This document shows positions 1,933 through 19,716 of a stretch of 24,000 nt of DNA, piece after piece. The position numbers were made by a program, and so were the translations under genes. Numbering within the stretch: the first letter of the stretch is position 1; each line of letters starts with the position of its first letter. The notes under the pieces are model-generated. The model was not told the origin of the DNA. It made no database searches and was given only the letters and a program-made list of their open reading frames with translations. Source of the stretch: Crassaminicella profunda (GTDB lineage: Bacteria > Bacillota > Clostridia > Peptostreptococcales > Thermotaleaceae); the NCBI RefSeq assembly GCF_019884785.1, contig NZ_CP082326.1, positions 465,355 to 489,354 of the forward strand, given 5' to 3'.

Positions 1933-1989
1933 ATTTCCTAATAAAAAGGAAATCATTTATTGGAAATAGATATTAAAATAGAATATATT
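1933..1989 (+). promoter_or_regulatory. Conserved operator + sigmaA-like promoter module, copy 1 (upstream of nagA)
   Basis: ATTTCC-N9-GGAAAT inverted repeat (1933-1953) nested in a longer imperfect IR (ATTTCCTAATAAA / TTTATTGGAAAT). -35-like TTGGAA at 1960-1965, 18-nt spacer, -10 TATATT at 1984-1989. The same architecture recurs at 3967 and 10377 with identical spacing. Confidence 0.55.
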
Positions 1990-2060
1990 AATATGCGAAG
2001 GTGCAATAATTTAAAAGAAATCTGTTTCAAACAACAGAGAAGTAGACAAGGAGGATAAAT

Positions 2061-3206
2061 TTGCTATCGGCCTTAGTGAATGGAAAAATCATTTATAATG
2101 ATACAGTTTTAGAGGGTAAAGCAATACTGTTTTCAGAAAAAATAGTAGAAATTACGGATAATGTTGAAAAATACGGAAAAATCAAGGTGTATAATGCAAA
2201 GGGAAATTTTATTTCAGCAGGATTTATAGATATTCATACGCATGGTTTTGCTGGAAAAGATGTTATGGATGGGAATCATGAATCCTTGAAGGTGATTTCG
2301 AAGGGCATCGTCCAAAATGGGGTGACTTCTTTTTTACCTACTACAATGACTATGGAGATGTATAAAATAGAAGAAGCTTTAAAAGCCATAAAAATCGGAA
2401 TGAATATGAAAATGCTAGGTGCAAATATCATAGGAGCACATCTCGAGGGTCCTTTTATCCATCCAGAATATAAAGGAGCACAACAGGCTGAATCTATTAG
2501 TGATCTTGATTTTGAATTTGTAAAAAAATATGAGGATGTCATAAGGTATATAACCTATGCACCAGAAAAGGATGGAAATTTAACATTTACTAAAAAAATG
2601 AGAAATCTTAAAAAAATATATCTTTCTATAGGACATTCTGGTGCAACCTATGATGAAGCCATGAAAGCAATTGAATATGGTGTAAAAAGCGCAACACATA
2701 CTTTCAATGCAATGAAAGGAATGCATCATAGAGAGCCAGGAACTGTAGGTGCTGTGATGGATTCTGATGTTTATGCTGAAGTAATAGTGGATAATATACA
2801 CTTACATCCTGCAATGGTGAGGATAATTACAAAAATTAAGGGATTAGATAAAATAATCTTAGTAACAGATTCTATGAGAGCAGCATGTATGAAGCCGGGG
2901 ATATATGAATTAGGAGGACAAACTGTAGAGATAAAGGACCATACTGCTAGGTTGAAGGATGGTACTTTAGCAGGAAGTATTTTAAACATGAATGATGCTT
3001 TAAGAAATTATAAAAATATTTCAAGGCTTAATATTGTAGATGTAGTGAAAATGGCTACTGAAAATCCAGCAAGACTTATGGAGATATTTGATCAAAAGGG
3101 CTCATTAAATGAGGGGAAGGATGCAGATATTACTGTATTTGATGAAAATTTTCATATTAAATTTACATTTGTTCATGGGCAACTTGTACACAAGGGAGAG
3201 TGTTAA
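2061..3206 (+). CDS. nagA: N-acetylglucosamine-6-phosphate deacetylase
   Basis: TTG start 5 nt after the AAGGAGGA RBS (2048-2055). Amidohydrolase motifs: FIDIHTHG, AHLEGPF, IGHSGAT, THTFNAM, DNIHLHP, LVTDSM. Confidence 0.93.
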   Translation: MLSALVNGKIIYNDTVLEGKAILFSEKIVEITDNVEKYGKIKVYNAKGNFISAGFIDIHTHGFAGKDVMDGNHESLKVISKGIVQNGVTSFLPTTMTMEMYKIEEALKAIKIGMNMKMLGANIIGAHLEGPFIHPEYKGAQQAESISDLDFEFVKKYEDVIRYITYAPEKDGNLTFTKKMRNLKKIYLSIGHSGATYDEAMKAIEYGVKSATHTFNAMKGMHHREPGTVGAVMDSDVYAEVIVDNIHLHPAMVRIITKIKGLDKIILVTDSMRAACMKPGIYELGGQTVEIKDHTARLKDGTLAGSILNMNDALRNYKNISRLNIVDVVKMATENPARLMEIFDQKGSLNEGKDADITVFDENFHIKFTFVHGQLVHKGEC

Positions 3207-3207
3207 A

Positions 3208-3945
3208 ATGAAAGTGATAATGGCTGAAAGTTATGAGGATATGAGTAGAAGAGTGGCAGAGATTATTGCAAGTCAAATTAGTTGTAAACCCAAAAGTGTA
3301 CTTGGATTTGCAACTGGATCTACACCATGTGGAAGTTATGGAGAGCTTATTAGAATGTACAATGAAGGGAAAATAAGCTTTGAAGATATTATTGCTTTTA
3401 ATTTGGATGAGTATTGTGGCTTAGATGGGAACGATATGGAGAGTTATCATTATTTTATGAAAAAGAATTTATTTGAGTTTGTAAATATACAGGAGAAAAA
3501 TATACATATCCCAAATGGAAGATGTAAAGATATAGAAAATGAATGTATAAATTATGAAAAGAAAATAGAAGAAGCTGGTAGTATTGATTTGCAATTATTG
3601 GGAATTGGAGAGAATGGACATATAGGATTTAATGAACCAGATGTGAAGTTTGAAGCACACACACATTTAGTAACATTAGAGGAGAAGACCTTAAAAGCCA
3701 ATTCTAAATTTTTTAATTCTTACGAAGAAGTTCCAAAAACAGCAATAAGCATGGGAATTAAAACGATTATGAATGCTAAAAAAATCTTGTTATTAGGAAG
3801 TGGAGAGAAAAAAGCTGAAGTTTTAAATAAAATGATTTATGGAGAAATAACACCCAATCTACCTGCTTCAATATTGCAGCTCCATTCTGATGTAAGCATA
3901 ATTGTTGATAAGGAAGCTGGAAAATTATTAAAGAAACAGGTGTAA
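3208..3945 (+). CDS. nagB: Glucosamine-6-phosphate deaminase
   Basis: ATG at 3208, 1 nt after the nagA stop, with RBS aagggagag. The longer track ORF from 3109 overlaps nagA and is rejected. Motifs: LGFATGSTP, FNLDEY, LGIGENGHIGFNEP. Confidence 0.93.
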   Translation: MKVIMAESYEDMSRRVAEIIASQISCKPKSVLGFATGSTPCGSYGELIRMYNEGKISFEDIIAFNLDEYCGLDGNDMESYHYFMKKNLFEFVNIQEKNIHIPNGRCKDIENECINYEKKIEEAGSIDLQLLGIGENGHIGFNEPDVKFEAHTHLVTLEEKTLKANSKFFNSYEEVPKTAISMGIKTIMNAKKILLLGSGEKKAEVLNKMIYGEITPNLPASILQLHSDVSIIVDKEAGKLLKKQV

Positions 3946-3966
3946 ATTTTGTATGATAACTATAAA

Positions 3967-4023
3967 CTTTCCTAATAAAAAGGAAATAATTTATTAGAAA
4001 TTGAGTTTGTTATCTTATATATT
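3967..4023 (+). promoter_or_regulatory. Conserved operator + promoter module, copy 2 (upstream of EIIA-1)
   Basis: TTTCC (3968-3972)-N9-GGAAA (3982-3986), TTAGAA at 3994-3999, 18-nt spacer, TATATT at 4018-4023. The distance from the GGAAA end to the -10 is 32 nt in all three copies. Confidence 0.55.
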
Positions 4024-4162
4024 AGTAGATGTAAGCAATGGGGTGATCTATCAAGGAAAATAAGAATTATCTTTTACTAATTATCTATAAGATCATGTTA
4101 GCCCTAAGATATCTGGATTAAGCATAAATAAAAAAACTATATTTTATACGAGGAGGAATAGT

Positions 4163-4477
4163 ATGAACAACTTAGAAGAAACATCATTTCAAATCATATC
4201 TGCTGCAGGGGAGTCAATGTCTGATATGTTTCAAGCGTTAAGATTTGCAAAGGAAGGTAAATTTATAAAATCAGAAGAAGCAATGAAAAAAGCACAAGAA
4301 TTATTAAATAAGGCACATAAAGCACAAACAAATCTTATTGTTGAAGAAGCACAAGGGAAGAAGACGGAATATTCTATAATTATGGTACATGCACAAGATC
4401 ACCTAATGAATTGTATGTTAGCAAAAAATTTAATTAATGAATTGATAGAGATTTATCAAAAGGGTAATCTAGTTTAA
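4163..4477 (+). CDS. PTS lactose/cellobiose-family EIIA component (copy 1)
   Basis: 104 aa, RBS gaggagga. Helical EIIA-Lac/Chb signature with the phosphorylatable His in MVHAQDHLM. Confidence 0.9.
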   Translation: MNNLEETSFQIISAAGESMSDMFQALRFAKEGKFIKSEEAMKKAQELLNKAHKAQTNLIVEEAQGKKTEYSIIMVHAQDHLMNCMLAKNLINELIEIYQKGNLV

Positions 4478-4687
4478 TAAGGGGATTTAGAATGATCGAA
4501 GAAAAGCAATTTGATATAGAAAACAAGTAAGTTGTAAATTTGGGGAAAACGTTTTTAAAAATTGATTCGTATCTATGGTAGATGGATTGTCTGGAATACT
4601 TATTTACATGGAAGTATAAAAATGGGTTAGATCATATATTGTTGTATGAGCGAACAGATAAAAAATCAAGAAAAGGAGATAGAAAGA

Positions 4688-5011
4688 ATGAAAAAAATAT
4701 TTTTGTTTTGTAGTCAAGGAATGTCTACGAGTTTACTTGCAAAAAAAATGCAAGATGTAGCAGAGAAACATAAACTTCCTATTGAAGTGAAAGCATTTTC
4801 CCATGGGGAAATTGAGGGAATTGTTGAAAAATTGAATCCAGATTGTATATTGTTAGGACCACAAGTTAAGTATTTATATGATGAAACTGTAAAAAAACTA
4901 AAGGATTGTAATATTCCAATAGCGGTAATTGACTCACTAGACTATGGAATGATGGATGCAGAAAAAGTTTTGAAGAAAGCAATTGTACTTATGAAAAAAA
5001 ATAAAAAATAG
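4688..5011 (+). CDS. PTS lactose/cellobiose-family EIIB component (copy 1)
   Basis: ATG at 4688 behind RBS aaaggaga; the track ORF start at 4646 lacks an RBS. N-terminal MKKIFLFCSQGMSTSLL carries the active-site Cys. Confidence 0.85.
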   Translation: MKKIFLFCSQGMSTSLLAKKMQDVAEKHKLPIEVKAFSHGEIEGIVEKLNPDCILLGPQVKYLYDETVKKLKDCNIPIAVIDSLDYGMMDAEKVLKKAIVLMKKNKK

Positions 5012-5022
5012 GGGGACAGAAG

Positions 5023-6372
5023 ATGTTTAAATTATTAGAGAAGCTATTAATGCCAGCTGCTGAGAAATTAGGTAAAAACAAAATTTTGATTGCAATTCGT
5101 GATGGATTTTTAATATCAACACCACTATTAATTGTAGGGTCTATCTTCTTATTGTTAGCTAATTTCCCAATATCCGGATGGGAGGAGTTTTGGACAAAAA
5201 TACTTGGCGAAGGTTGGGACATGTGGTTTGTAAATGTTTCGAGAGCAACATTTGGTATTATTGCTTTATTGAGTTGTTTAGGAACTGGTTATGCATATGC
5301 TAGAGAAATAAAGGGAGATAAAATACAAAGTGCTGCTGTAGCGTTAGTGTCATTTATTATTTTAATGCCGACGTGTATCTCATTTGAAGGTGTTAAAGGG
5401 AGTGGCACAATAAGTGCATTAGCTTTTGAATATGTAGGTTCTAACGGGATATTCTTAGCACTTATTGTATCTGTGGTATCTGTGAAAATCTTTAATTGGG
5501 CTTATGAAAAAGGTTGGACTATAAAAATGCCGAATGGTGTGCCACCGGCTGTAGCTGATTCTTTTGCAGCTTTAATTCCAAGTTCGATAGTTATAGGATT
5601 CTTTTTCTTAATACGTATAGGATTTGAATTTACAACATTTGAAACAGCACATAAGTTTATATATACCGTATTACAAATGCCATTACAAGGTATAGGCAAT
5701 ACATTAGGAGCACAAATGGTTTATAGTACATTTGGTTCACTGTTTTGGTTCTTTGGAATCAATGGACCGGCAGTTACAAACACAATATTTGGACCTATTA
5801 TGAAAGTATTAACGATTGAAAATTTAGAAGCATTTCAAGCAGGCTTACCATTACCAAATATATTTACAGGCCCATTTTCAGATTTCTTTACATGTTATGG
5901 AGGTGGAGGAAGTACCCTTTCATTAGTTATTGTTATGATGTTATTTTGTAAATCAAAAAGAATTACCCAATTAGGGAAGTTGTCAATTGTTCCAGGAATC
6001 TTTGGGATTAATGAACCTATTATTTTTGGTTTACCAATCGTATTGAATCCAGTATTGATCGTTCCTTTTATAGTAGTTCCATCAGTGAACTTGATACTTT
6101 CTACATTTGCTACTAATCTAGGAATTATTCCTTATACTACAGGGGTAGCATTACCATGGACAACTCCTATAGGATTTTCAGGATACTTAGCCACAGGGAG
6201 CTTAGTTGCAGGATTATGGCAAATAGGGTTGCTAATACTTGGATGTTTCATTTACTATCCATTCATAAAAATGCTAGATAAAAAATATTTAAAAGACGAA
6301 GAAGAAGCAACAAATAGTGAATCTGAAATAGAAGATATTTCATTTGAGGACCTATCTGCGGAGGACTTTTAG
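5023..6372 (+). CDS. PTS lactose/cellobiose/chitobiose-family EIIC permease
   Basis: 449-aa polytopic membrane protein. Has the GINEPIIFGLPIVLNP motif typical of ChbC/CelB-type EIIC, and an acidic C-terminal tail. Confidence 0.9.
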   Translation: MFKLLEKLLMPAAEKLGKNKILIAIRDGFLISTPLLIVGSIFLLLANFPISGWEEFWTKILGEGWDMWFVNVSRATFGIIALLSCLGTGYAYAREIKGDKIQSAAVALVSFIILMPTCISFEGVKGSGTISALAFEYVGSNGIFLALIVSVVSVKIFNWAYEKGWTIKMPNGVPPAVADSFAALIPSSIVIGFFFLIRIGFEFTTFETAHKFIYTVLQMPLQGIGNTLGAQMVYSTFGSLFWFFGINGPAVTNTIFGPIMKVLTIENLEAFQAGLPLPNIFTGPFSDFFTCYGGGGSTLSLVIVMMLFCKSKRITQLGKLSIVPGIFGINEPIIFGLPIVLNPVLIVPFIVVPSVNLILSTFATNLGIIPYTTGVALPWTTPIGFSGYLATGSLVAGLWQIGLLILGCFIYYPFIKMLDKKYLKDEEEATNSESEIEDISFEDLSAEDF

Positions 6373-6380
6373 GAGGGAAG

Positions 6381-6905
6381 ATGATGAAAGTTTTAATGAT
6401 ATTTGATCAAATCCAATCAGGGCAAGGTGGAAAAGAAAATCCGAACTTGCCATTAGGCGGAAAAACTATGGCGATAGGTTCTGCAAGTATGTTAGGACCG
6501 ATTTTGAAAAAATTAGGTGGAGTAGTTGTAGCGTGCTTATATTGTGGAGATGGATATTTTAAAAATAATAAAGAAGAAGTAAAATTCAAAATAACTGCTA
6601 TGGTGAAAAAAATTAATCCAGATGTAGTTATATGTGGACCAGCATTTAATTATGCTGGATATGCAGAAATGTGCGCAGTATTGGCGCATGAAATAAATGA
6701 AAAAACAGACATTCCAGCTATAGCTGGAATGTCTAAGGAAAATGAACGAACTATTTTAGATCATAAAGATTTAATAGATATTGTAGTTATGCCTAAAAAA
6801 GGTGGAATAGGATTAACTGAGTCACTTGAAAATATTTGTACGTTAGCTAAAAAAATTGTTGATGGTGAGGATACAAGTGAGTATGCAAAGCAAATATGTT
6901 ATTGA
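6381..6905 (+). CDS. Short GrdB-N-terminal-domain-like protein (glycine/sarcosine/betaine reductase component B family, lacking the Sec-containing C-terminal part)
   Basis: 174 aa, RBS aggaggga. MIFDQIQSGQGGKE, YCGDGYF and PDVVICGPAFNYAGYAEMCAVLAHEINEKTDIPAIAGM parallel my recollection of the GrdB N-terminus (HYINQFFAGIGGEE, ICGDSYF, PDLFIAGPAFNAGRYGVACG...GIP..TGM). Family assignment is from memory, not from a search. Confidence 0.7.
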   Translation: MMKVLMIFDQIQSGQGGKENPNLPLGGKTMAIGSASMLGPILKKLGGVVVACLYCGDGYFKNNKEEVKFKITAMVKKINPDVVICGPAFNYAGYAEMCAVLAHEINEKTDIPAIAGMSKENERTILDHKDLIDIVVMPKKGGIGLTESLENICTLAKKIVDGEDTSEYAKQICY

Positions 6906-6909
6906 AAAG

Positions 6910-6935
6910 GTAGTCTAGATTTAGACTGCTTTTTT
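6910..6935 (+). terminator. Weak intrinsic terminator-like hairpin after the GrdB-like gene
   Basis: 8-bp stem gtagtcta/tagactgc (one G-U pair), loop gatt, followed by tttttt. Confidence 0.5.
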
Positions 6936-6975
6936 AATAATAATTCGCATGAATTAGGGAGGTGTAAGCTTTTAA

Positions 6976-8100
6976 ATGGAAAAGAAGTTAAATGAAAAAA
7001 TAGATGAAGTTAAGACGAAATTAATAGAAGATATTATTGAAATAGTCAAAATACCAAGTGTAAAAGGAACACCGGAGAAAAAAGCTCCCTTTGGAAGAAA
7101 TATTAACAAGGCATTATTTAAGGCTCTTGAAATATCTGAAAAGCTAGGTTTTAAAACAGAGAATATAGATGGATATATGGGATATGCTCAATTAGGAGAT
7201 GATGAGAACTATATAGGGATTGTAGGACATGTAGATGTAGTTTTAGCAAAAGAAGGATGGTGTAATCCACCATTTAGTGGAAATATTGAAAATGGTAAAA
7301 TTTATGGTCGAGGAGTACTTGACAATAAGGGACCGATAATGAGTGCATTATATGCATTATATGCTATAAAGGAATCTAAATTGAAATTATCAAAAACCAT
7401 ACGTATTATATTTGGCACGGACGAAGAAAGTGGATTTTCTGACATACCTTATTATTTAAATAGAGAAAAACCACCAATCATGGGATTTACTCCTGATTGT
7501 AAGTATCCAGTAGTTTATGGTGAAAGAGGTAGAGCAAAAATCAAAATAGGAATTGATATGAATAAAGAAAACTATGAAAAGCTAACACGAGAATTTTTTG
7601 ATTTTGTTAATACTTATTTTTTAGCAAGTAAATCAAATGGTGATAGACTAGGAATTAATTATAGTGATAAAGAATTTGGAATGATGCAAATGAGAAATTA
7701 TAATTTGGATAATAAGGATAATTATTTAAATTTCACATTTGATTTAAGCTATCCAGCAACGTGTACAATAGATGAAATCATTAAGCAAATAGAATCTAAA
7801 ATGAGTTGTAACTTAGAAATAGAGCTATTAAATAATTATAATCCAGTTAAATTTGAAAAAAAGTCTTTTTTAATTAGATCATTGCAAGAAGCGTATGAAG
7901 AAGTAACCCATTTAGATGGAAGTCCAGTTACAACGACTGGAGGAACCTATGCAAAGGTTATGCCTAATATTGTACCTTTTGGCCCATCTTTTCCAGGACA
8001 AAAAGGTATAGCACACAATCCTAATGAATATATGGATATGAATGATATCGTATTAAATGCAAAAATATTTAGCCAAGCAATATATAAACTAGCAAAATAA
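6976..8100 (+). CDS. M20-family metallo-dipeptidase (PepV/Sapep-like, short lid)
   Basis: Metal and catalytic motifs are all present: GHVDVV, GRGVLDNKGP, GTDEESG, FTPDCKYP, AHNPNE. Confidence 0.85.
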   Translation: MEKKLNEKIDEVKTKLIEDIIEIVKIPSVKGTPEKKAPFGRNINKALFKALEISEKLGFKTENIDGYMGYAQLGDDENYIGIVGHVDVVLAKEGWCNPPFSGNIENGKIYGRGVLDNKGPIMSALYALYAIKESKLKLSKTIRIIFGTDEESGFSDIPYYLNREKPPIMGFTPDCKYPVVYGERGRAKIKIGIDMNKENYEKLTREFFDFVNTYFLASKSNGDRLGINYSDKEFGMMQMRNYNLDNKDNYLNFTFDLSYPATCTIDEIIKQIESKMSCNLEIELLNNYNPVKFEKKSFLIRSLQEAYEEVTHLDGSPVTTTGGTYAKVMPNIVPFGPSFPGQKGIAHNPNEYMDMNDIVLNAKIFSQAIYKLAK

Positions 8101-8152
8101 GGTAAGAAATCATAGGAAAAAATATTTCATTAAAGAAAAGAGGTAAAAGGGT

Positions 8153-9229
8153 ATGAAATTAAGTGATTACACATTGAAATTAATGGAAGAAATTACTCAA
8201 GTTATTGGTGTTTCAGGAAATGAAAAATATATTTCTAAAGTATTGCAAAAGTACTATAAAGAATATACAAATGAGGTTGTTTTCGATAATTTAGGTTCGA
8301 TTTTTGCAGTAAGACGTTGTGGAAAAGACAATGCAAAAAAAGTTATGGTTTGTGGAAATATGGATGAGATTGGATTTATGGTCAATGGTATTACAGATAT
8401 GGGACTAATAAAAATTTTGCCATTAGGGACTATTTTCAACCAAACTATATTGGCACAAAGAGTTAGATTGATAAATAGTGAGGGAAAGGTATTTAAAGGA
8501 AGTGTAGTAACTATAAATCCTCAGGAAGACAAGCCTAGATCAGTAAAGATTAGTGAAATGTTAGTGGATATTGGTGCTACTAGTAAAGAAGAAATTGAGG
8601 AATTGGGGATAAAACTAGGGGACTCAATTGTTATAGAAGGACAATTTGAGGTATTGGCTACAGAAAAGAGAATACTTTCTAAAGCATGGGATAATCGCTA
8701 TAGTTGTATTATGGGTATTGAATTATTGGAAGCATTAAAAGATACGGATTTAGATGTGGATTTATATGTTGGATGTACAGTGCAAAATAAGGTAGGATTG
8801 AGAGGCTCTGAAACTGCGACTAAATTAGTCAAGCCAGACTTAGGTATTGTAATGGATTGTTTACAAGCAAATGATATAAAGGTCAATAAGGATGTAGTAG
8901 GTAAACTAGGAGAAGGGATATTGATTAATTATTATGATAAATCAATGATGCCTAATAGAGCGTTGTTGGGACATTTAGTTGACATTTGTAAATCAAATAA
9001 TATAAAGCATCAATATTATTATTCAATGGGAGAAAGTGATGCTAAATGGGTGCATAAATTATTAATAGGGTGTCCAACTTTAACAACTTGTATTTGTGCA
9101 AGAAATGTAAGTACAAATAGTTCAATTATCGATGTTTATGATTATATATCCGCAAAGAAAGCAATTGTAAAGGTTATTAAATCTTTAAATACAAAAAATA
9201 TTAATAAATTTAAAGAAGAAAATAGGTAA
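8153..9229 (+). CDS. M42-family (FrvX/PepA/YsdC-like) aminopeptidase paralog with degenerate metal-binding residues (likely non-catalytic)
   Basis: Aligns along its full length with the downstream paralog. It carries GNMDEIG (vs GHMDEVG), AWDNRYS (vs AWDDRIG), VQNKVGLRG (vs VQEEVGLRG) and ARNVSTN (vs RYMHSPR). Confidence 0.8.
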   Translation: MKLSDYTLKLMEEITQVIGVSGNEKYISKVLQKYYKEYTNEVVFDNLGSIFAVRRCGKDNAKKVMVCGNMDEIGFMVNGITDMGLIKILPLGTIFNQTILAQRVRLINSEGKVFKGSVVTINPQEDKPRSVKISEMLVDIGATSKEEIEELGIKLGDSIVIEGQFEVLATEKRILSKAWDNRYSCIMGIELLEALKDTDLDVDLYVGCTVQNKVGLRGSETATKLVKPDLGIVMDCLQANDIKVNKDVVGKLGEGILINYYDKSMMPNRALLGHLVDICKSNNIKHQYYYSMGESDAKWVHKLLIGCPTLTTCICARNVSTNSSIIDVYDYISAKKAIVKVIKSLNTKNINKFKEENR

Positions 9230-9261
9230 TATGTGTGACTGAAAGTATTGGAGGAGAATTT

Positions 9262-10341
9262 ATGGATAATATAGATTTACAAATGCTAAAGGAGTTAAGT
9301 GAGGCTGATGGAATATCAGGTTGCGAAAAAGAGGTCAGTAGAATTGTAAAAAAGCATTTTGACAATTATGCTGATGAAGTTTCATATGACAATTTAGGGT
9401 CAATTATTGGATTGAAAAAAGGTAAACAAAATGGTCTAAAAGTAATGATTGCAGGACATATGGATGAAGTAGGATTTATTGTAAGAGATATTGATGATAA
9501 GGGATATATAAAAATATTACCTGTAGGAAGATGGTGGGGGCATGTATTACCTTCACAAGAAATGACGATAACAACATCAATAGGTAAAAAGATAAATGGT
9601 ATAGTTGGAAGCCGTGCACCGCATGGAATGACAGCTTCTCAAAAGAAAAGTGTAATGGAACCAATGGATTTGTTCATAGATTTGGGTGTTGAAACAAGAA
9701 AAGAAGCAGAAAATTTAGGAATACAAATTGGAGACATGATCACACCTAATGCTAAATTCAAGGTTATGAATAACTCGAATTATTTAGCAGGAAAGGCCTG
9801 GGATGATAGAATAGGTGTTGCAGTAGCTATAGATGTATTAAAGGGACTTCAAAATGTTGAACATGATGCCAATATTTATGCAGTTGGTACTGTTCAAGAA
9901 GAAGTTGGATTGAGGGGCGCTAGAACAGCTACACAGGTTGTGAAACCAGATATTGCCTTTGCATTAGATGTGACAATGGCTAAGGATACACCACAGGACA
10001 AGGGAGGGTTAAATTTAGGATGTGGTGTGATACTTAGTATATTAGATGCTACAGCGTTAGCGCATAGAGGGCTGCTTAAGAATTTAGAAGAAATTTGTGA
10101 AGAACTACAATTAAATGTAAATTATGATTGTATGATAGCAGGCGGAACGGATGCAGGCAATATTCATAAAACATTTGATGGGGTTGTTACAATGGTACTT
10201 TCCATACCAACGCGATATATGCATTCACCTAGACTCATCATACATCGTAAAGATTATATTCAAACAGTGAAGACGATTGTAGAATTTTGTAAAAGAGCTG
10301 ACTTGCAATTATTGAATAAAATAAAAAGAATAGATAGATAA
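9262..10341 (+). CDS. M42-family aminopeptidase (canonical motifs intact)
   Basis: ATG at 9262 behind ggagga; the track start at 9235 (GTG) lacks an RBS. Motifs: HMDEVGF, WDDRIG, QEEVGLRGA, ALDVT, GGTDAG, YMHSP. Confidence 0.88.
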   Translation: MDNIDLQMLKELSEADGISGCEKEVSRIVKKHFDNYADEVSYDNLGSIIGLKKGKQNGLKVMIAGHMDEVGFIVRDIDDKGYIKILPVGRWWGHVLPSQEMTITTSIGKKINGIVGSRAPHGMTASQKKSVMEPMDLFIDLGVETRKEAENLGIQIGDMITPNAKFKVMNNSNYLAGKAWDDRIGVAVAIDVLKGLQNVEHDANIYAVGTVQEEVGLRGARTATQVVKPDIAFALDVTMAKDTPQDKGGLNLGCGVILSILDATALAHRGLLKNLEEICEELQLNVNYDCMIAGGTDAGNIHKTFDGVVTMVLSIPTRYMHSPRLIIHRKDYIQTVKTIVEFCKRADLQLLNKIKRIDR

Positions 10342-10376
10342 TTTCTAAATAAAAAATTCATAAGATTTTTTAGAAA

Positions 10377-10433
10377 ATTTCCTAATAAAAAGGAAAACAA
10401 TTATTAGAAGTTTAGTTTATTATTTTATATATT
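10377..10433 (+). promoter_or_regulatory. Conserved operator + promoter module, copy 3 (upstream of EIIA-2)
   Basis: TTTCC (10378-10382)-N9-GGAAA (10392-10396), TTAGAA at 10404-10409, 18-nt spacer, TATATT at 10428-10433. Confidence 0.55.
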
Positions 10434-10458: not shown

Positions 10459-10776
10459 ATGTACAATTTAGAAGAAATAGCATTTCAAATCATATCTTAT
10501 GCAGGAGATTCGTTGTCTAGTATGTTTCAAGCATTAAGTGTTGCAAAGGAAGGGGATTTTATAAAATCAAAAGAAATGATGAAAAAAGCGCAAGAACTAT
10601 TAAAAGAGGCACATAAAGCACAAAAGAATCTAATTGAACAAGAAGTACAAGGAAAAAAAACAGAATACTCTATACTGATGGTACATGCGCAAGATCACCT
10701 AATGAAGTGTATATTAGCAAAAAAATTGATAAATGAATTAATAGATATTTATAAAAAGGATAAGGGGGATAAATAA
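10459..10776 (+). CDS. PTS lactose/cellobiose-family EIIA component (copy 2)
   Basis: 105 aa, about three quarters identical to EIIA-1 by eye. Same MVHAQDHLM His site. Confidence 0.9.
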   Translation: MYNLEEIAFQIISYAGDSLSSMFQALSVAKEGDFIKSKEMMKKAQELLKEAHKAQKNLIEQEVQGKKTEYSILMVHAQDHLMKCILAKKLINELIDIYKKDKGDK

Positions 10777-11726
10777 TGGGTTTTGGAATGATAGCTACTT
10801 GGAGAATGGCTTTAGAGGGTGTAACATGTGCATCTGAGATGCTTAAAAATGGTTTAAAATCAGATGAGTGCATTGAAAAAGCGATTAGCATGGTTGAGGA
10901 TTATCCGTTTTATAAATCTGTAGGATATGGCGGGTTACCCAATGAAAATTGTGAAGTAGAGCTAGATTCAGCTTTCATGGATGGAAATACGTTGGCGATA
11001 GGTGCAGTAGCAGGAATAAAGAATTTTAAAAATCCAGTTTCAATTGCTAGAAAATTAAGTGAAGATCGATTCAATATTTTCCTAGTGGGTGCAGGTGCAG
11101 AAAAATTTGCTCATGAAAATGGATTTGAACGAAAAAACATGTTAACAGAGAGAGCAAAGAAAACATGGAAGAATAGATTAGAAGAGATTAAAGCGAAGAA
11201 TCTAAGTCCTTATGATGGCCATGATACAGTTGGGATGGTTTGTTTGGATAAATACAAGAACATGACTACAGCTACTTCAACAAGTGGGTTATTCATGAAG
11301 AAAAGAGGACGTGTAGGGGATTCACCTATTTCTGGTTCGGGTTTTTATGTAGATAGTAAAATAGGTGGTGCGTGTGCTACTGGATTAGGAGAAGATATAA
11401 TGAAAGGCTGTTTATCTTATGAAGTGGTAAGATTAATGGGTGAAGGAATACAGCCACAGCAAGCAGTTGAAAAGGTTATAAGTGAGTTTAGTAAAAAACT
11501 AATTGAAAGAAGAAAAAAAGCTGGAGCTATATCTATTGTATGTATGAATCATAAAGGCGAATGGGGAGTAGGAACAAACGTTGAATTTTCATTTGTTGTA
11601 GCAACAGAACGTGAAGATGCAAAAGTTTATGTTGCAAATCAACAGGGTGATAAGACAACCTATGAAGAAGCAACAAAGGAATGGATGGATGCTTATGAAG
11701 AAAGAATTAAAAGACCAATAGAGTAA
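10776..11726 (+). CDS. Cytoplasmic Ntn-hydrolase of the asparaginase-2 family, glycosylasparaginase (aspartylglucosaminidase)-type
   Basis: The ATG overlaps the EIIA-2 stop (TAATG). Autoprocessing/nucleophile motif GHDTVGMVCLD. Also ATW at the N-terminus, VEDYP..SVGYGGLP, KNPVSIAR, TSTSG....GRVGDSPISGSGFYVD, ATGLGEDIM. The protein begins directly at the conserved core, so there is no signal peptide. Confidence 0.8.
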   Translation: MGFGMIATWRMALEGVTCASEMLKNGLKSDECIEKAISMVEDYPFYKSVGYGGLPNENCEVELDSAFMDGNTLAIGAVAGIKNFKNPVSIARKLSEDRFNIFLVGAGAEKFAHENGFERKNMLTERAKKTWKNRLEEIKAKNLSPYDGHDTVGMVCLDKYKNMTTATSTSGLFMKKRGRVGDSPISGSGFYVDSKIGGACATGLGEDIMKGCLSYEVVRLMGEGIQPQQAVEKVISEFSKKLIERRKKAGAISIVCMNHKGEWGVGTNVEFSFVVATEREDAKVYVANQQGDKTTYEEATKEWMDAYEERIKRPIE

Positions 11727-11767
11727 AAAACAAATAAAGGGATCTGAAGTTGAAGAGGAGTGACAGT

Positions 11768-12079
11768 ATGAAAATTGCAGTAATTTGTTATGTAGGCATG
11801 ACTACAAGCTTATTGGTGAGCAAAATGAAAAAAGTTGCACAAGAAAGAGGTTTGGCTTTAGATATAGATGCATATGCTACAACAGAAATAGATGATGTAC
11901 TTGACGACACAGATGCAGTTTTACTAGGACCACAAGCAAGATGTGAATTAAATGAAATAAAAACAATTACAGATCCTAAGAATATACCAACGAGAGTAAT
12001 AGATAGTATGCTTTATGAAACGATGAATGCAAGTGCTATATTAGATATGGTGCAAGAGCTTGTACAAAATAAATACTGA
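11768..12079 (+). CDS. PTS lactose/cellobiose-family EIIB component (copy 2, divergent)
   Basis: ATG at 11768 behind gaggag. MKIAVICYVGMTTSLLVSKM retains the Cys. Only distantly similar to EIIB-1. Confidence 0.8.
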   Translation: MKIAVICYVGMTTSLLVSKMKKVAQERGLALDIDAYATTEIDDVLDDTDAVLLGPQARCELNEIKTITDPKNIPTRVIDSMLYETMNASAILDMVQELVQNKY

Positions 12080-12158
12080 TTCTAGGAATTCGTTCAAAAA
12101 CTCTTTGGCATTTTGCTTTAGGGTTTTTAGATTAATCAGCATAGATAAGAGGTGACGG

Positions 12159-12782
12159 ATGTATATGCGAGAAGCTTGTGTAGGATCTTTTGAAGAAGCA
12201 AAGAAAGCACAAGAATTAGGAGCTAATAGAATAGAACTATGTGATAATTTAAAAGAAGGTGGAACGACTCCGAGCTATGGAACGATTCTTATGGCAAAAA
12301 AATTTTTAGACATTCCTATAATGGTTATTATAAGACCTAAAGGCGGGAATTTTATATATTCAAAAGCAGAAATTGAAATAATGAAAATAGATATAAAGAT
12401 TTGTAAGGAATTAGGAGTAATGGGAGTGGTTTTCGGGATTTTAGATGAGCATAATTTAATAAATAAAGAGGTCACGAAGGAACTTGTAGATTTAGCAAAA
12501 CCACTTCATGTAACTTTTCATATGGCTTTTGATGAGATTGAGGACAAAAAAAGAGCTTTAGAGGAACTAGTTGAACTTAAAGTAGATACAATATTAACAA
12601 AAGGGTGCAAAACAAAAGCCTTTGATGGAAAAGAAACGATAAAAGAGTTGATTCATCTTAGTAAGGATAGAATAATCATACTTCCTGGTGGAGGGATTAC
12701 AAAAGAAAATTATCTTGAATTGATGCAATATACAAATGCAAAGGAAGTGCATGGAACAAAAATAGTGGGTCGGTTAAAATAG
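12159..12782 (+). CDS. cutC: CutC-family TIM-barrel protein
   Basis: REACVGSFEEAKKAQELGANRIELCDNLKEGGTTPSYG matches the CutC N-terminal signature (E.C....A..A...GA.RIELC..L..GG.TPS.G). Also TFHMAFD and LPGGGI. The start could alternatively be the ATG at 12165. Confidence 0.85.
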   Translation: MYMREACVGSFEEAKKAQELGANRIELCDNLKEGGTTPSYGTILMAKKFLDIPIMVIIRPKGGNFIYSKAEIEIMKIDIKICKELGVMGVVFGILDEHNLINKEVTKELVDLAKPLHVTFHMAFDEIEDKKRALEELVELKVDTILTKGCKTKAFDGKETIKELIHLSKDRIIILPGGGITKENYLELMQYTNAKEVHGTKIVGRLK

Positions 12783-12794
12783 GGAGGATATATC

Positions 12795-14717
12795 TTGATC
12801 AATATATCAAATAGACAAAAAGAGCTAATAAAATATATATGGAATAGAAGAAAGAGAATTACAGGAAAAGAATTAGCAGTTTTTTTCTCCGTTACCCCTA
12901 GAACTATTAGAACAGATATTAAAAATATAAATGCTAAGGAGAGAATCATTCATTCGAGTGGTAGGGGATATTTTATTTTAAAAGATCAAGACAAGACCAT
13001 AAAAAGTATATTAAATAATAAAAATGCCCCAGTACAACAATTTGAAAGAGTGAATTATATACTCAAGAAGTTGTTAATAGCAAAAAATAAATTGGATGTT
13101 TATGAAATAGCCGAAGAAATATACGTAAGCGAAGCAACACTAGAAAAAGATTTAAAGATGCTTTCGAATGTATTAAATGAAAAATATAAAAACCTAGGTA
13201 TCTGTAAAAAAGGGAGCAAATTTTATATTACAGGAGGAGAAAAGGATAAGCGACTTTTAATGAGTCAATTATTGTTTAAAGAATTAAAGGGCAATTTATT
13301 AAATTTATCTAATTTTCAAATTCATTTTAAATATGATCTGCCGAAGATAAAGCAAACAGTGCTTTCTATTTTAAGTAAAAATAAATTTCATGTAAGAGAT
13401 GTATCGATTAATAATCTTATTATTCACATTGCTATAACCATGGAAAGGATCGAAAAAGAAAATTTCTTAAAAAGTGGCATATCGGTCAATGAAGATAGTG
13501 AAGAATACAAAGTGGCTATAGATATATGCAATAGTATTAAAAATGAATTTAATATAGATTTCCCACAAAAAGAAGTGAAATACATAGGGTTTTTATTAAT
13601 AGGAAAGAAGGTGATAGAAAGTACTTTTAGTAGTAGATTAGAATTTTATAGAAATATACCAATAGAATATGTAAAGAGAATAGAAAGTATTGTAGAAGAT
13701 ACATGCAAAGAGTTTAGAATAAATTTTTTAGAAGATGAAGAATTAATCATAGGACTCACACTACATATGAAATTAATGCATGAAAGATTAGAAAAAAAAG
13801 CACTTAATAGAAAAAACATTTTAGAAGATTTAAAATTAGAATATCCTATAATATTTGAAATTGCTGTATTTGTATGCAAAAAATTTTATGAAACAATGGG
13901 ATTTGAAGCGGAAGAAATAGAAGAAGGGGAAGTAGCATTCATTGCATTACATTTTGGTGCATCTTATGAAAGAAGATTTAAAAAAAATAAACTTCTTAGA
14001 GTGGCACTTGTTTGTCCAACTGGATATATGACTTCGAATATCCTTTTAGAAAAGTTAAATAGGCTATATAAAAGAAGAATAGAAATAGAGGATGTATATT
14101 CTATAATGGATTTAGAAAGTATAGACAAAACTAAAGTAGATTATATATTTAGTACAGTTGAATTAGGGGCAGACATAGATATCCCAGTATTAGTAGTGTC
14201 AACTTTTTTATTAGATAAGGATTTTAAAAATATAGATAGGATAATAAAACATTTCGAGTTTAAAAATACTTTAGAAATAGAAAAATATTTTGATCCTAGG
14301 TTTTTTCATATAAAGAATACATTTAAAAACATGTTTGAAGCTATAAGTTTTATGACAGAAAAATTAGAAGTGAATAATATTGTTCCGGAAAATTACAAGG
14401 AATTAGTGATGGAAAGAGAATTAATTGCACCTACTTCCTTTGGAAATTTGGTAGCTTTACCTCATGCAGTAGAATTAAATGCTTATAAAACTGTATTTTC
14501 TGTAGTGATATTAAAAAAACCTATAAAATGGGGGAAGCATAATGTACAGTTAATATTTATGGGTGCTATAAAAAAAGGGGAAAGAAAAATGTTAAATAAG
14601 CTTATAAATCATATAACCCAAATATTAGAGGATCCTAAATCTATCAATCAATTAATAAAAATATCAAACTACAATGAATTTATAAAAAAAATAGGTAAGT
14701 TACCAAGCGAAGATTAA
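12795..14717 (+). CDS. PRD-containing transcriptional activator, LicR/MtlR/ManR type (wHTH-Mga HTH-PRD1-PRD2-EIIB-like-EIIA-like)
   Basis: TTG start behind gggagga. N-terminal wHTH (ITGKELAVFFSVTPRTIRTDI). PRD histidines at LIIHIAITMERI, LTLHMKLMHERL and FIALHFGAS. EIIB(Gat)-like VALVCPTGYMTS. EIIA(Mtl/Fru)-like LVALPHAVE. Confidence 0.85.
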   Translation: MINISNRQKELIKYIWNRRKRITGKELAVFFSVTPRTIRTDIKNINAKERIIHSSGRGYFILKDQDKTIKSILNNKNAPVQQFERVNYILKKLLIAKNKLDVYEIAEEIYVSEATLEKDLKMLSNVLNEKYKNLGICKKGSKFYITGGEKDKRLLMSQLLFKELKGNLLNLSNFQIHFKYDLPKIKQTVLSILSKNKFHVRDVSINNLIIHIAITMERIEKENFLKSGISVNEDSEEYKVAIDICNSIKNEFNIDFPQKEVKYIGFLLIGKKVIESTFSSRLEFYRNIPIEYVKRIESIVEDTCKEFRINFLEDEELIIGLTLHMKLMHERLEKKALNRKNILEDLKLEYPIIFEIAVFVCKKFYETMGFEAEEIEEGEVAFIALHFGASYERRFKKNKLLRVALVCPTGYMTSNILLEKLNRLYKRRIEIEDVYSIMDLESIDKTKVDYIFSTVELGADIDIPVLVVSTFLLDKDFKNIDRIIKHFEFKNTLEIEKYFDPRFFHIKNTFKNMFEAISFMTEKLEVNNIVPENYKELVMERELIAPTSFGNLVALPHAVELNAYKTVFSVVILKKPIKWGKHNVQLIFMGAIKKGERKMLNKLINHITQILEDPKSINQLIKISNYNEFIKKIGKLPSED

Positions 14718-14873: not shown

Positions 14874-16580
14874 ATGTTACTAGGAACAGGTGCTTCTGAA
14901 GGAATTGCACTAGGAAAAGCATTACTGATTAAAAATGGGTCATTAGACATAGTAAAGCAAGAAATTGAAGATATAGAAAAAGAGAAAAAGAAATTATTAG
15001 AGGCTATAGAAGCTTCCAAAGAGCAGTTATCAAAAGTAAAAGAAAAGACTTCAAATGAATTAGGGGTGGATAAAGGAGCTATTTTTGAAGCTCATTTAAT
15101 GATTTTAGATGATCCAGAGTTTATTCAAAATACTATGAATAAAATTGAAGAAGAAAAAGTAAATGCTGAATTTGCATTGAAGGAAATTTCTAATCAATTC
15201 ATTGGTATCTTTGAAAGTATGGACAATGAATACATGAGAGAAAGAGTAGCAGATATTAAAGATGTATCAGAGCGTATCCTTCGAAATATAGTAGGGCAAA
15301 AAAATATTGATTTATCCATGTTAGATGAAGAAGTTATTTTGATTGCAGAGGATTTAACACCTTCTGATACAGCAACGATGGACAAAGAAAAAGTATTGGG
15401 ATTTTTAACAAATATAGGTGGGCGTACATCACATACAGCTATTATGGCTAGGAATTTTGAAATTCCAGCAGTTGTTGGGCTTAAAAACATTACGAAAAAA
15501 GTAAAAACAGGAGATTTTATTGTACTAAATGGAGAAACTGGACAAGTAATAGTAAGTCCTACAGAAAAAGAGATAGAGCAATATCAAAGATTAAAAAAGC
15601 AGTATGAAGAAAATGAAAAAGAATTAGAAAAAATTATAGGAAAACAGAGTAGTACGATAGATGGTAGGAAAGTAGAGCTTGTTGGCAATATTGGGACACC
15701 AAAAGATATTGCAGGACTTAAGAAAAATGATGCAGAGGGAGTCGGTTTATATAGAACAGAATTTATTTATATGGATCGAGAGAGTATGCCGACAGAAGAA
15801 GAGCAATTTAGAGCATATAAAGAGGTACTTGTAAGCTTAAATCAAAAACCAGTTGTAATCAGAACTTTAGATATAGGTGGAGACAAAAAACTTCCCTATT
15901 TGAAAATTGATGAGGAAATGAATCCGTTTTTAGGATATAGAGCCATCAGACTTTGCTTAAATCAACAAGATATCTTTAAAACCCAGTTAAGAGCATTACT
16001 GCGAGCAAGTGTATATGGAAATTTAAAAATTATGTTTCCTATGATTTCAAGTCTCGAAGAACTTTTATTAGCAAAATCCATAGTACATGATGTCAAGATG
16101 GATTTAGACAATGAAGGAATAAAATATGCTCATCCTATAGAAGTGGGAATGATGATTGAAGTACCATCTGCAGCAATCATTAGTGATATTTTAGCAAAGC
16201 ATGTAGATTTCTTTAGTATTGGGACAAATGATTTAATCCAGTATATTACTGCAGTAGACAGGATGAATGAAAAAATCTGTCATCTGTATAGTCCATTTAA
16301 TCCTGCTGTTTTAAGACTCATTAAAACAGTTATTGAAAATGGGCATAAAGAAAACATTTGGGTGGGGATGTGCGGAGAAGCCGCAGCAGATAAAAGAATG
16401 ATTCCAATCTTGCTTGGAATGGGACTTGATGAATTTAGTATGAGTGCATCCTCTATTTTACTAGCAAGAAAACTAATTCGATCACTAAAGTTTGAGGATG
16501 CTCAAAAAATTTCTCAGAAAGTATTAAGTATGAGCACAGCAGAAGAAATAGAGAACTATATAAAAAATGTTATAAAATAA
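14874..16580 (+). CDS. ptsI: PTS enzyme I (phosphoenolpyruvate-protein phosphotransferase)
   Basis: RBS aaagggagg. Motifs: GGRTSHTAIMARNFEIPAVVG (phospho-His), GLYRTEF, IRTLDIGGDK, KIMFPMISS, SIGTNDLIQY, CGEAA. Confidence 0.95.
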   Translation: MLLGTGASEGIALGKALLIKNGSLDIVKQEIEDIEKEKKKLLEAIEASKEQLSKVKEKTSNELGVDKGAIFEAHLMILDDPEFIQNTMNKIEEEKVNAEFALKEISNQFIGIFESMDNEYMRERVADIKDVSERILRNIVGQKNIDLSMLDEEVILIAEDLTPSDTATMDKEKVLGFLTNIGGRTSHTAIMARNFEIPAVVGLKNITKKVKTGDFIVLNGETGQVIVSPTEKEIEQYQRLKKQYEENEKELEKIIGKQSSTIDGRKVELVGNIGTPKDIAGLKKNDAEGVGLYRTEFIYMDRESMPTEEEQFRAYKEVLVSLNQKPVVIRTLDIGGDKKLPYLKIDEEMNPFLGYRAIRLCLNQQDIFKTQLRALLRASVYGNLKIMFPMISSLEELLLAKSIVHDVKMDLDNEGIKYAHPIEVGMMIEVPSAAIISDILAKHVDFFSIGTNDLIQYITAVDRMNEKICHLYSPFNPAVLRLIKTVIENGHKENIWVGMCGEAAADKRMIPILLGMGLDEFSMSASSILLARKLIRSLKFEDAQKISQKVLSMSTAEEIENYIKNVIK

Positions 16581-16646: not shown

Positions 16647-16910
16647 ATGGAAAAAAGAGTAGTAATAAAAAATGAAAGTGGCATACATGCAAGACCAGCA
16701 GGCATGCTTGTTAAAAAGTCTAATGAGTTTAAATCAAATATAGAAATATCTTTTAAAGAGAGAACCGTAAATGTTAAATCAATAATGGGGATTATGAGTT
16801 TAGGACTTTCTAAAGGAAGTGAAATAAGTATAATAGCAAATGGAGAAGATGAACAAAATGCAGTAAATGAGTTAGTTAACCTTGTGGAGAGCGGATTTAA
16901 TGAATTATAA
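16647..16910 (+). CDS. ptsH: Phosphocarrier protein HPr
   Basis: 87 aa, RBS gggagg. His15 context SGIHARPA and Ser46 context VNVKSIMGIMSLG. Confidence 0.95.
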   Translation: MEKRVVIKNESGIHARPAGMLVKKSNEFKSNIEISFKERTVNVKSIMGIMSLGLSKGSEISIIANGEDEQNAVNELVNLVESGFNEL

Positions 16911-19330: not shown

Positions 19331-19431
19331 GGATATTTTAGAATTTCTATTGAAAATCATGAAGAAAACAGTTGTTTAATCAATGCTATAAAGAAAATGA
19401 TTTGAAGATTATTAAAATTAGAAGAAAAAAG

Positions 19432-19676
19432 ATAGAAGTACTTATTACCACAGAAAGATTAAATATTTGTTTAGCCCAAGAGGAAGATATTCCTATTATC
19501 ATGCAAATAGAGAATGATAAGGAAAATAAAAGCTTTATTTGGCAAGGGTGCTATGAAGAACATTTAGATGAGATCAATAGTAATGATTCAATCTTATAAA
19601 GATGAAAGAGGATATTTGGATCAAATGATTTTTTCTATGTTGAAAGAAGAGTATTCTGCCAAGTAAAAATCATGAA
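19432..19676 (+). pseudogene. Truncated, frameshifted duplicate of the GNAT gene at 847-1353
   Basis: ATG is mutated to ATA (19432). The first ~150 nt are about 86% identical to 847-995. An internal deletion of ~272 nt (junction near 19580/19581) shifts the frame to a stop at 19597-19599. The last ~95 nt are about 97% identical to 1274-1365. Confidence 0.8.
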
Positions 19677-19716
19677 AATATATCAAATTAGGAAGTATAT
19701 TCACAAATTTCATTGT

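Follow-up and report, generated by a model that had tools for sequence, protein, structure and literature searches.

Three operator–promoter-like modules and an MtlR/LicR-type PRD regulator at a glycosylasparaginase/phosphotransferase locus of Crassaminicella profunda

Three module copies and the operons behind them

We analysed a 24,000-nucleotide stretch of DNA from Crassaminicella profunda (assembly GCF_019884785.1, contig NZ_CP082326.1, positions 465,355 to 489,354; hereafter the window, numbered from its first nucleotide), in which a short module made of a palindrome and a promoter-like sequence occurs three times, and in which a gene at 12795-14717 encodes a regulator with two phosphotransferase system (PTS) regulation domains (PRDs). 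An earlier reading of this DNA, here called the original prediction, had proposed that the modules are operators and promoters controlled by this regulator. The genes form a run that lies entirely on one strand and, by Pfam and NCBIfam annotation, the modules stand exactly at the heads of its first three groups; the predicted positions ahead of nagA (2061), EIIA-1 (4163), and EIIA-2 (10459) were thus found to be correct.

Each copy contains the exact 19-mer TTTCCTAATAAAAAGGAAA, which is located at 1934-1952, 3968-3986, and 10378-10396, on the + strand in all three cases. Its core is TTTCC-N9-GGAAA, with the arms TTTCCT and AGGAAA placed around the 7-nt centre AATAAAA. Even with up to three mismatches allowed, no fourth match was present in the window (0.09 expected by chance), and three or more matches of the 19-mer were seen in none of 100 shuffled sequences. 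A repeat finder placed the three copies in a single 75-nt family with 73-84% identity. Downstream of each palindrome lies (T/A)TTATT-(G/A)-GAA, which contains a -35-like hexamer 7 nt from the palindrome end and is followed, after a spacer of 18 nt (17 nt if the hexamer is taken as TGGAAA or TAGAAA), by the -10 sequence TATATT. The candidate core promoters accordingly extend over 1957-1989 in copy 1 (TTATT 1957-1961, TTGGAA 1960-1965, TATATT 1984-1989), 3991-4023 in copy 2 (TTATT 3991-3995, TTAGAA 3994-3999, TATATT 4018-4023), and 10401-10433 in copy 3 (TTATT 10401-10405, TTAGAA 10404-10409, TATATT 10428-10433), all on the + strand.

The spacing of these elements is constant. Between the last A of GGAAA and the first T of the -10 the coordinates differ by 32, with 31 nt intervening, in all three copies, so the predicted distance of 32 holds when read as a coordinate difference, and the predicted triplicate arrangement of the 19-mer-based module, TT(A/G)GAA, the 18-nt spacer, and TATATT was confirmed base by base. 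Transcription starts, placed about 7 nt downstream of the -10 rather than mapped, are predicted near 1996, 4030, and 10440. Relative to them the palindrome covers approximately -62 to -44 and TTATT approximately -39 to -35, followed by a weak -35 of the form TnGAAA. The original prediction had also nested the palindrome in a longer imperfect inverted repeat. The second arm of this repeat, TTTATT(A/G)GAAA, is indeed seen in the window, where copy 3 reads ATTATTAGAAG, but the left-arm extension TAATAAA varies between species, and the longer repeat was rejected as a functional feature for this lack of conservation. The conserved TTATT-nGA(A) would be better seen as the -35 region together with a short T-rich element.

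The operon of copy 1 (2061-3945, + strand) consists of nagA (2061-3206) and nagB (to 3945), both assigned by NCBIfam equivalogs above their cut-offs (TIGR00221 and TIGR00502). For nagB, the longest open reading frame runs from 3109, which gives an overlap of about 100 nt with nagA; the alignment to NagB models begins only at residue 34, so that translation probably starts near 3208 instead, directly past the nagA stop codon. The operon of copy 2 (4163-10341, + strand) was annotated with Pfam and NCBIfam as EIIA-1, EIIB-1, EIIC, a GrdB-like oxidoreductase, a PepV-like M20 dipeptidase, and two M42 aminopeptidases, in which EIIA, EIIB, and EIIC belong to the Lac/Cel PTS family (PF02255, PF02302, and PF02378; TIGR00410 above its cut-off). 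The oxidoreductase (6381-6905) is a putative GrdB-related protein without selenium (NF041545 above cut-off) that sits inside the PTS/peptidase operon. The dipeptidase (6976-8100) is only 374 aa long and the PepV model aligns to it in two parts, and its counterparts in two related loci (L031 and L032) have 462-463 aa; this PepV/Sapep-like M20 enzyme may have an internal deletion or may lack a lid domain. Copy 2 is followed by a leader (4024-4162) of about 130 nt, longer than that of copy 3; it folds worse than shuffled sequences and has no Rfam match. A gap of about 210 nt (4478-4688), likewise with no stable fold or Rfam match, lies between EIIA-1 and the likely start of EIIB-1 at 4689.

The operon of copy 3 (10459-14717, + strand) holds EIIA-2, a glycosylasparaginase-like Asparaginase_2 gene, EIIB-2, CutC, and the PRD regulator, with intergenic gaps of 0-79 nt. 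The Asparaginase_2 match has an E-value of 2.5e-65, and the best NCBIfam model, beta-aspartyl-peptidase, scores 120 bits against a cut-off of 567. Within the module-headed operons, the terminator scan predicted no terminator between genes, and the gaps are short.

The position of the copies raises the question of whether they act at the RNA level, as terminators or as targets of an antiterminator of the ribonucleic antiterminator (RAT) kind, or whether they are dispersed repeats or ends of mobile elements. Copies 2 and 3 lie only 22 nt past the nagB stop codon and 36 nt past that of the second M42 gene, the sequence is able to form a 6-bp hairpin, and the neighbouring regulator is labelled "BglG family antiterminator" in databases. 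We regard such an origin as highly improbable, since the hairpins are weak (-4.4 to -6.3 kcal/mol, with z of -0.7 to -1.2 against shuffles), terminator scans gave nothing at the copies, and Rfam gave no match at the gathering threshold or at E<=1. Three related loci (L032, L033, and L035) do have a genuine terminator, which is GC-rich, but it is a separate element located upstream of the motif. The regulator contains helix-turn-helix (HTH) and Mga domains for DNA binding and lacks the CAT domain for RNA binding. A search for the exact 19-mer in one genome each of 185,579 species found 29 single, scattered, chance-level matches and no genome with several copies (the window's own genome was not among the matches), and plasmids and phages gave no motif match. 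Two specific candidates were rejected on these grounds: a BglG/LicT-type antiterminator with a RAT (no CAT_RBD, no terminator-like site after the modules, no Rfam match, and leaders that fold no better than shuffles) and a terminator (no terminator-like site at any copy). A mobile element or repeat is improbable, with all three window copies at operon starts and no plasmid or phage match.

Conservation of the module in related loci

Ten independent loci, the window counted among them, carry an Asparaginase_2/PTS cluster, and in all ten TTTCC-N9(8)-GGAAA lies directly upstream of the first gene. An orthologue of the regulator, with 28-61% identity, is present on eight of the ten (the window, L030, L031, L032, L033/34, L035/36, L049, and L127); at L103, the same site as L059, there is a partial regulator-like gene of 38% identity about 8 kb off, and L092 is too short to tell. 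On the homologue contigs the regulator adjoins EIIA, Asparaginase_2, EIIC, EIIB, and often CutC. The gene set of the copy-3 operon is also found behind the motif in L030-L036, L049, L059, L092, and L127.

The sites themselves show which parts of the module are kept. Geosporobacter ferrireducens (L030) has two such promoters, with TTTCCTAATTGAAAGGAAATTATTTATTTGAAA and CTTCCTAACCGGTAGGAAAATAGTTATTTGAG, and single sites read ATTTCCTAATGGGTAGGAAATTATTTATTGGAAT in L031, TTTCCGCGCAGCTAGGAAAAAGTTTATTTGAAA in L033, TTTCCGAATTGTTAGGAAAAAGTTTATTGGAG in L035, and, as an N8 variant, TTTCCTAACATTAGGAAATTGTTTATTGGAAC in L032. L127, whose regulator is only 28% identical, has the same gene cluster behind ATTTCCTATAGGTAGGAAG, with TATAAT 31 nt further. 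The arms TTTCC and AGGAAA are retained across species, and the centres are AATAAAA, AATTGAA, AACCGGT, AATGGGT, GCGCAGC, GAATTGT, and others. Conserved arms around a free centre would be what a DNA-binding dimer is expected to leave as its footprint. In 16 of the 17 collected sites the -10 begins 31-32 nt after GGAAA, although the stretch between the two shows no conservation; the two N8 variants differ only by a displaced distal arm.

A weight matrix built from eight sites outside the window ranked the three window palindromes first to third, with 27.2 bits for copy 1, 21.2 for copy 2, and 20.1 for copy 3, as compared to a maximum of 12.1 bits in 30 shuffles. Scanning the 24-kb window with the matrix gave no further site, which agrees with the original prediction that none precedes the peptidase genes, cutC, or the regulator, and there was no site before ptsI or ptsH either. 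The peptidases, cutC, and the regulator are best seen as internal genes of the copy-2 and copy-3 operons, and because of this location, the missing copy of their own does not exclude them from the regulon. The regulator, lying inside the third operon, is for this reason probably autoregulated.

We also approached the motif from the opposite direction, by scanning metagenomes for TTTCC-N7/8-AGGAAA-N4-TTATT-N-GAR. This returned 88 stretches, 64 of them unique, and six of the unique sites adjoin PTS or PRD-regulator genes in the correct orientation. Half of these six belong to new EIIA-Asparaginase_2-EIIC-EIIB operons (L049, L059/64/103, and L092), whose Asparaginase_2 proteins are 69-72% identical to that of the window. 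A -10-like hexamer was present at the expected spot in all six PTS- or PRD-linked sites, as compared to four of the other 58, and those four sit inside long open reading frames.

Part of the likeness among the window copies may be explained by duplication, and one could regard the copies as relics of segmental duplication, that is, as constitutive promoters without a dedicated operator role. EIIA-1 and EIIA-2 share 83% nucleotide identity (76% in protein), about equal to the 84% shared by copies 2 and 3, and the unconstrained 7-nt centre is identical in the three copies, which points to common descent. However, duplication accounts for the origin of the copies and not for the conservation of the arms. 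The arms, TTATT, and the 31-32 nt to the -10 are kept in nine other organisms, with regulators that are 28-61% identical and flanks that are otherwise unalignable, and a matrix made from foreign sites recovers all three window sites. We therefore consider it very unlikely that the copies are relics of this kind and nothing else.

The PRD regulator and a proposed switch

The regulator (12795-14717, + strand) has 640 aa. Pfam assigned HTH_11 at residues 7-59, Mga at 84-159, two PRDs (best match 297-389), an EIIB-like domain (a weak PTS_IIB match at 403-472), and PTS_EIIA_2 at 498-633; no Sigma54_activat (AAA+) or CAT_RBD domain was found with Pfam. His212 lies in PRD1, His324 and His386 in PRD2, Cys407 in the EIIB-like domain, and His557 in EIIA_2. 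In an alignment of 13 homologues H324, H386, and H557 are invariant, and His212 and Cys407 (within LVCPTGY) are conserved within the orthologue group. A PDB sequence search matched only the EIIA-like domain, to mannitol EIIA, and so offered no structural clue to how the protein binds DNA. The closest homologue is from G. ferrireducens (61% identity), followed by metagenomic proteins of 39-51%. The MtlR/LicR/ManR type is defined by HTH and Mga-like domains, two PRDs, an EIIB(Gat)-like domain, and an EIIA(Mtl/Fru)-like domain (PMC10864463). The full architecture was recovered with Pfam for the protein encoded here, and by this architecture the regulator is of the MtlR/LicR type and not a BglG/LicT antiterminator, despite its database label "BglG family transcription antiterminator". 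A sigma54 promoter at the modules was considered and rejected: GG/GC boxes and an AAA+ domain are absent, copies 2 and 3 have no GG of a -24 box, and the geometry is that of a -35/-10 promoter with TATATT.

Regulators of other clades provide a comparison for the arms. Beside other Lac/Cel PTS clusters, where the regulators are paralogues of 27-29% identity, a palindrome is again found about 29 nt upstream of the -10, with different arms. For example, the site is TCCATA-N4-TATGGA in Clostridium oceanicum (L126, ~3530-3600) and TTGCACAG-GT-CTGTGCAA in L129 (~4610-4670). The site of L128 (~2070-2140), where the regulator is 30% identical, retains the same arms and reads TTTCCGCTAGTAACGGAAA. Arms that shift with the regulator clade at a roughly held position would be expected if the PRD regulator binds them.

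The same module also appears on four human-gut contigs (L071, 1372-4028; L108, 559-2695; L039; and L100), with TATAGT 31 nt after GGAAA. The genes behind it encode either a YitT-like membrane protein, a nucleoside phosphorylase, and a phosphopentomutase, or a GH4 6-phospho-glycosidase together with the YitT-like gene. A PRD regulator, EIIB, and EIIA are located about 2 kb upstream, and this regulator shares only about 23% identity overall with that of the window, and about 30% across the DNA-binding region.

These gut contigs, in which a similar module stands near a PRD regulator of such low identity, are one reason to ask whether the palindrome is instead the operator of another transcription factor encoded outside the window, such as a GntR/NagR-type repressor, with the PRD regulator acting elsewhere. 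One site precedes nagAB, a classical NagR target, and the glycosylasparaginase locus of Enterococcus faecalis has a GntR regulator (PMC11549559). Against such a factor, no GntR gene was found in the window or in the related loci, and the PRD regulator is the only regulator that recurs beside these clusters among the loci compared. As would be expected of an activator, the site is placed ahead of a weak -35 and does not cover the -35, the -10, or the start, and the arms change along with the PRD clade as described above. To our knowledge, TTTCC/GGAAA arms are also unlike GntR-type (GT-N-AC) or dre sites, which counts against a GntR/NagR regulator. A different factor is thus unlikely.

We consider it likely that the three modules serve as operator–promoters of the MtlR/LicR-type PRD activator encoded at 12795-14717 and that they drive an "ega-like" pathway for N-acetylglucosamine-asparagine (GlcNAc-Asn), so named after the E. 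faecalis locus compared below. The assignment of the modules as operator and promoter of the PRD activator has strong in silico support, namely the occurrence in ten of ten loci, the fixed spacing, the matrix ranking, and the clade-dependent arms. In the proposed mechanism, the operator TTTCCT-N7-AGGAAA lies directly ahead of a weak sigmaA-type promoter (TTATT, a poor TnGAAA, and TATATT). The activator would bind it, probably as a dimer, and, once bound next to the -35, would recruit or stabilise RNA polymerase, both by analogy with MtlR of Bacillus subtilis. HPr~P would activate the regulator at H324/H386 of PRD2 when preferred sugars are absent, and the cognate EIIA/EIIB would inhibit it through phosphorylation at Cys407/His557 when no substrate is transported. 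We infer activation rather than repression.

Such a switch would co-induce three sets of genes: the Lac/Cel-family PTS with the peptidases; the glycosylasparaginase-like enzyme with the accessory EIIA/EIIB, CutC, and the regulator itself, which amounts to positive autoregulation; and NagA/NagB, which would process released GlcNAc-6-P. By analogy with E. faecalis, we infer that the substrate of the pathway is GlcNAc-Asn or small N-glycopeptides. Uptake through the PTS would produce a 6-phospho-GlcNAc derivative, and its hydrolysis would give GlcNAc-6-P; control of nagAB by the same operator would be explained by this release.

Several observations weigh against this reading. The palindrome centre lies at about -53, which is neither the classical class I position (-61.5) nor the class II position (-41.5). 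The site before nagAB has no counterpart in any other organism examined and the metagenome scan gave no motif match before nagA or nagB; among the best 120 NagA homologues, the closest, from Clostridium, reach only 55% identity, and none comes from Geosporobacter. Because the regulator of the gut contigs is only about 23% identical, the arm specificity may extend past a single orthologue group, or a different factor may be at work. The module and EIIA appear to have been duplicated, as the identity of the two EIIA genes about equals that of modules 2 and 3, and the similarity of copies 2 and 3 would then partly reflect duplication. Lastly, the identity of the centre in the three window copies is more than binding constraint alone is sufficient to explain.

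The centre AATAAAA (1939-1947, 3973-3981, and 10383-10391) is the same in all three window copies and free between species, and in copy 1 the spacer between -35 and -10 has diverged and the palindrome centre has not. This suggests common descent or gene conversion of the centre, and not binding constraint.

Known systems, regulon growth, and neighbouring genes

The closest precedent for the switch is MtlR. In B. subtilis, MtlR acts at sigmaA promoters, where a conserved operator of 42 bp encloses a short palindrome and comes to within 7 bp of the -35; the operator is present at PmtlA and PmtlR, so that MtlR induces its own gene, and the arrangement was termed class II-like by the authors (PMC3217849). 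The MtlR proteins of B. subtilis and Geobacillus stearothermophilus share with the window regulator the domain order HTH, Mga-like, PRD1, PRD2, EIIB-Gat-like, and EIIA-Mtl/Fru-like. Further points of likeness are the sigmaA-type promoters, a palindrome that nearly reaches the -35, PTS targets, and an operator at several promoters including the one that serves the regulator; the same palindrome stands at three promoters in the window and at two in G. ferrireducens, as is the case for MtlR-type operators. There are also differences. MtlR arms are of the type TTGTCACA...TGTGCCAA, whereas those of the window are TTTCCT/AGGAAA; MtlR controls a mannitol PTS, and the window encodes a Lac/Cel PTS; and MtlR has its own promoter, whereas the window regulator is encoded at the end of a target operon. 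Operator binding has been demonstrated for MtlR, whereas the operator of the window is predicted from sequence.

For the pathway, the closest likeness is in E. faecalis. As summarised in two reports, GlcNAc-L-Asn is taken up in this species by a Lac/Cel PTS and uptake depends on a Lac/Cel EIIA (PMC11549559, PMC11976118). Its "ega" locus encodes a glycosylasparaginase, EIIB/EIIC, a dipeptidase, and a GntR regulator, and it also carries an oxidoreductase pseudogene (PMC11549559, PMC11976118, citing Combret et al., Res Microbiol 175:104169). An Asparaginase_2-family enzyme, Lac/Cel EIIB/EIIC, a dipeptidase, and an oxidoreductase-like gene are common to ega and the window, and the GrdB-like oxidoreductase of the window recalls the pseudogene mentioned for ega (PMC11549559). 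The ega locus is under GntR control, whereas the window and nine related loci have the PRD activator with TTTCC-N9-GGAAA. In addition, the window encodes CutC and two M42 aminopeptidases, carries EIIA/EIIB in duplicate, and has nagAB as a further operon behind the motif.

A further system of this kind is reportedly the alf-2 operon of Lacticaseibacillus casei/paracasei, in which the glycosylasparaginase AsnA2 and a PepV-type peptidase are said to serve the catabolism of fucosyl-alpha-1,6-GlcNAc-Asn, the glycoamino acid of the N-glycan core. It is said to differ from the window in having a permease and not a PTS, a fucosidase, a kinase, an aspartate decarboxylase, and a regulator of another type.

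For UlaR2 of Streptococcus pneumoniae, a 16-bp palindrome (AACACA...TGTGT) before a PTS operon was defined by cross-species conservation, with a regulon of a single operon (PMC4324149). A short palindrome upstream of a PTS operon is common to both cases, and UlaR2 is unlike the window in the sequence of the palindrome, the one-operon regulon, and a description with no fixed-distance analysis. The TTTCC/GGAAA arms may already have been described for a LicR-type protein, as the operators of B. subtilis LicR and streptococcal CelR lie outside this comparison.

The number of operons that carry the motif is one in most relatives, two in G. ferrireducens, and three in the window. The copy-3 operon has no EIIC, and every orthologous operon has one. 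The only EIIC of the window (5023-6372) shares 36-39% identity with those EIICs, and Asparaginase_2 and EIIB-2 are 74% and 71% identical to their counterparts in G. ferrireducens. These identities suggest that the ancestral EIIC was lost and that a paralogous PTS is used instead.

A wider proposal combines these points. Firmicutes MtlR/LicR-type activators could follow a fixed-position code, with the proximal arm about 30 nt from the -10 and arms that co-vary with the clade, and the regulon could have grown from one to three operons by copying of an operator–promoter cassette, which recruited nagAB and a paralogous PTS/peptidase operon as the ancestral EIIC was lost. We hold this proposal tentatively, with slightly more doubt than confidence. 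If true, such a positional code would allow genome-wide prediction of regulons for poorly charted PRD activators.

Taken as a case of regulation, the locus presents a well-supported but fairly ordinary further example of the known MtlR/LicR-type gene switch, tied to a recently recognised catabolic pathway, and no general principle is changed by it. It provides PRD activators of a small, uncharacterised clade with a testable candidate operator (TTTCCT-N7-AGGAAA, with 31-32 nt to the -10), and it links this clade to the glycosylasparaginase/Lac-Cel PTS cluster of Clostridia-like anaerobes. It suggests that the catabolism of GlcNAc-Asn or glycopeptides, run by GntR in Enterococcus, is elsewhere placed under an activator controlled by PTS phosphorylation that co-induces nagAB; if true, this would be a case of non-orthologous regulator replacement. 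In practice, the motif could improve the annotation of genes labelled "BglG family antiterminator", and the module is a possible inducible promoter cassette for these organisms.

The rest of the window offers a few minor observations. Directly downstream of the regulator, ptsI (14874-16580) lies ahead of ptsH (16647-16910) with no motif copy before the pair; the usual order in Firmicutes is ptsH-ptsI, the opposite of that found here. With at most one mismatch allowed, there are no catabolite-responsive elements (cre sites) for CcpA in the window. A GNAT acetyltransferase gene at 847-1353 (repeat segment 843-1370) recurs about 18.5 kb downstream (19428-19683) as a copy with an internal deletion, which matches in two segments with 86% and 95% identity.

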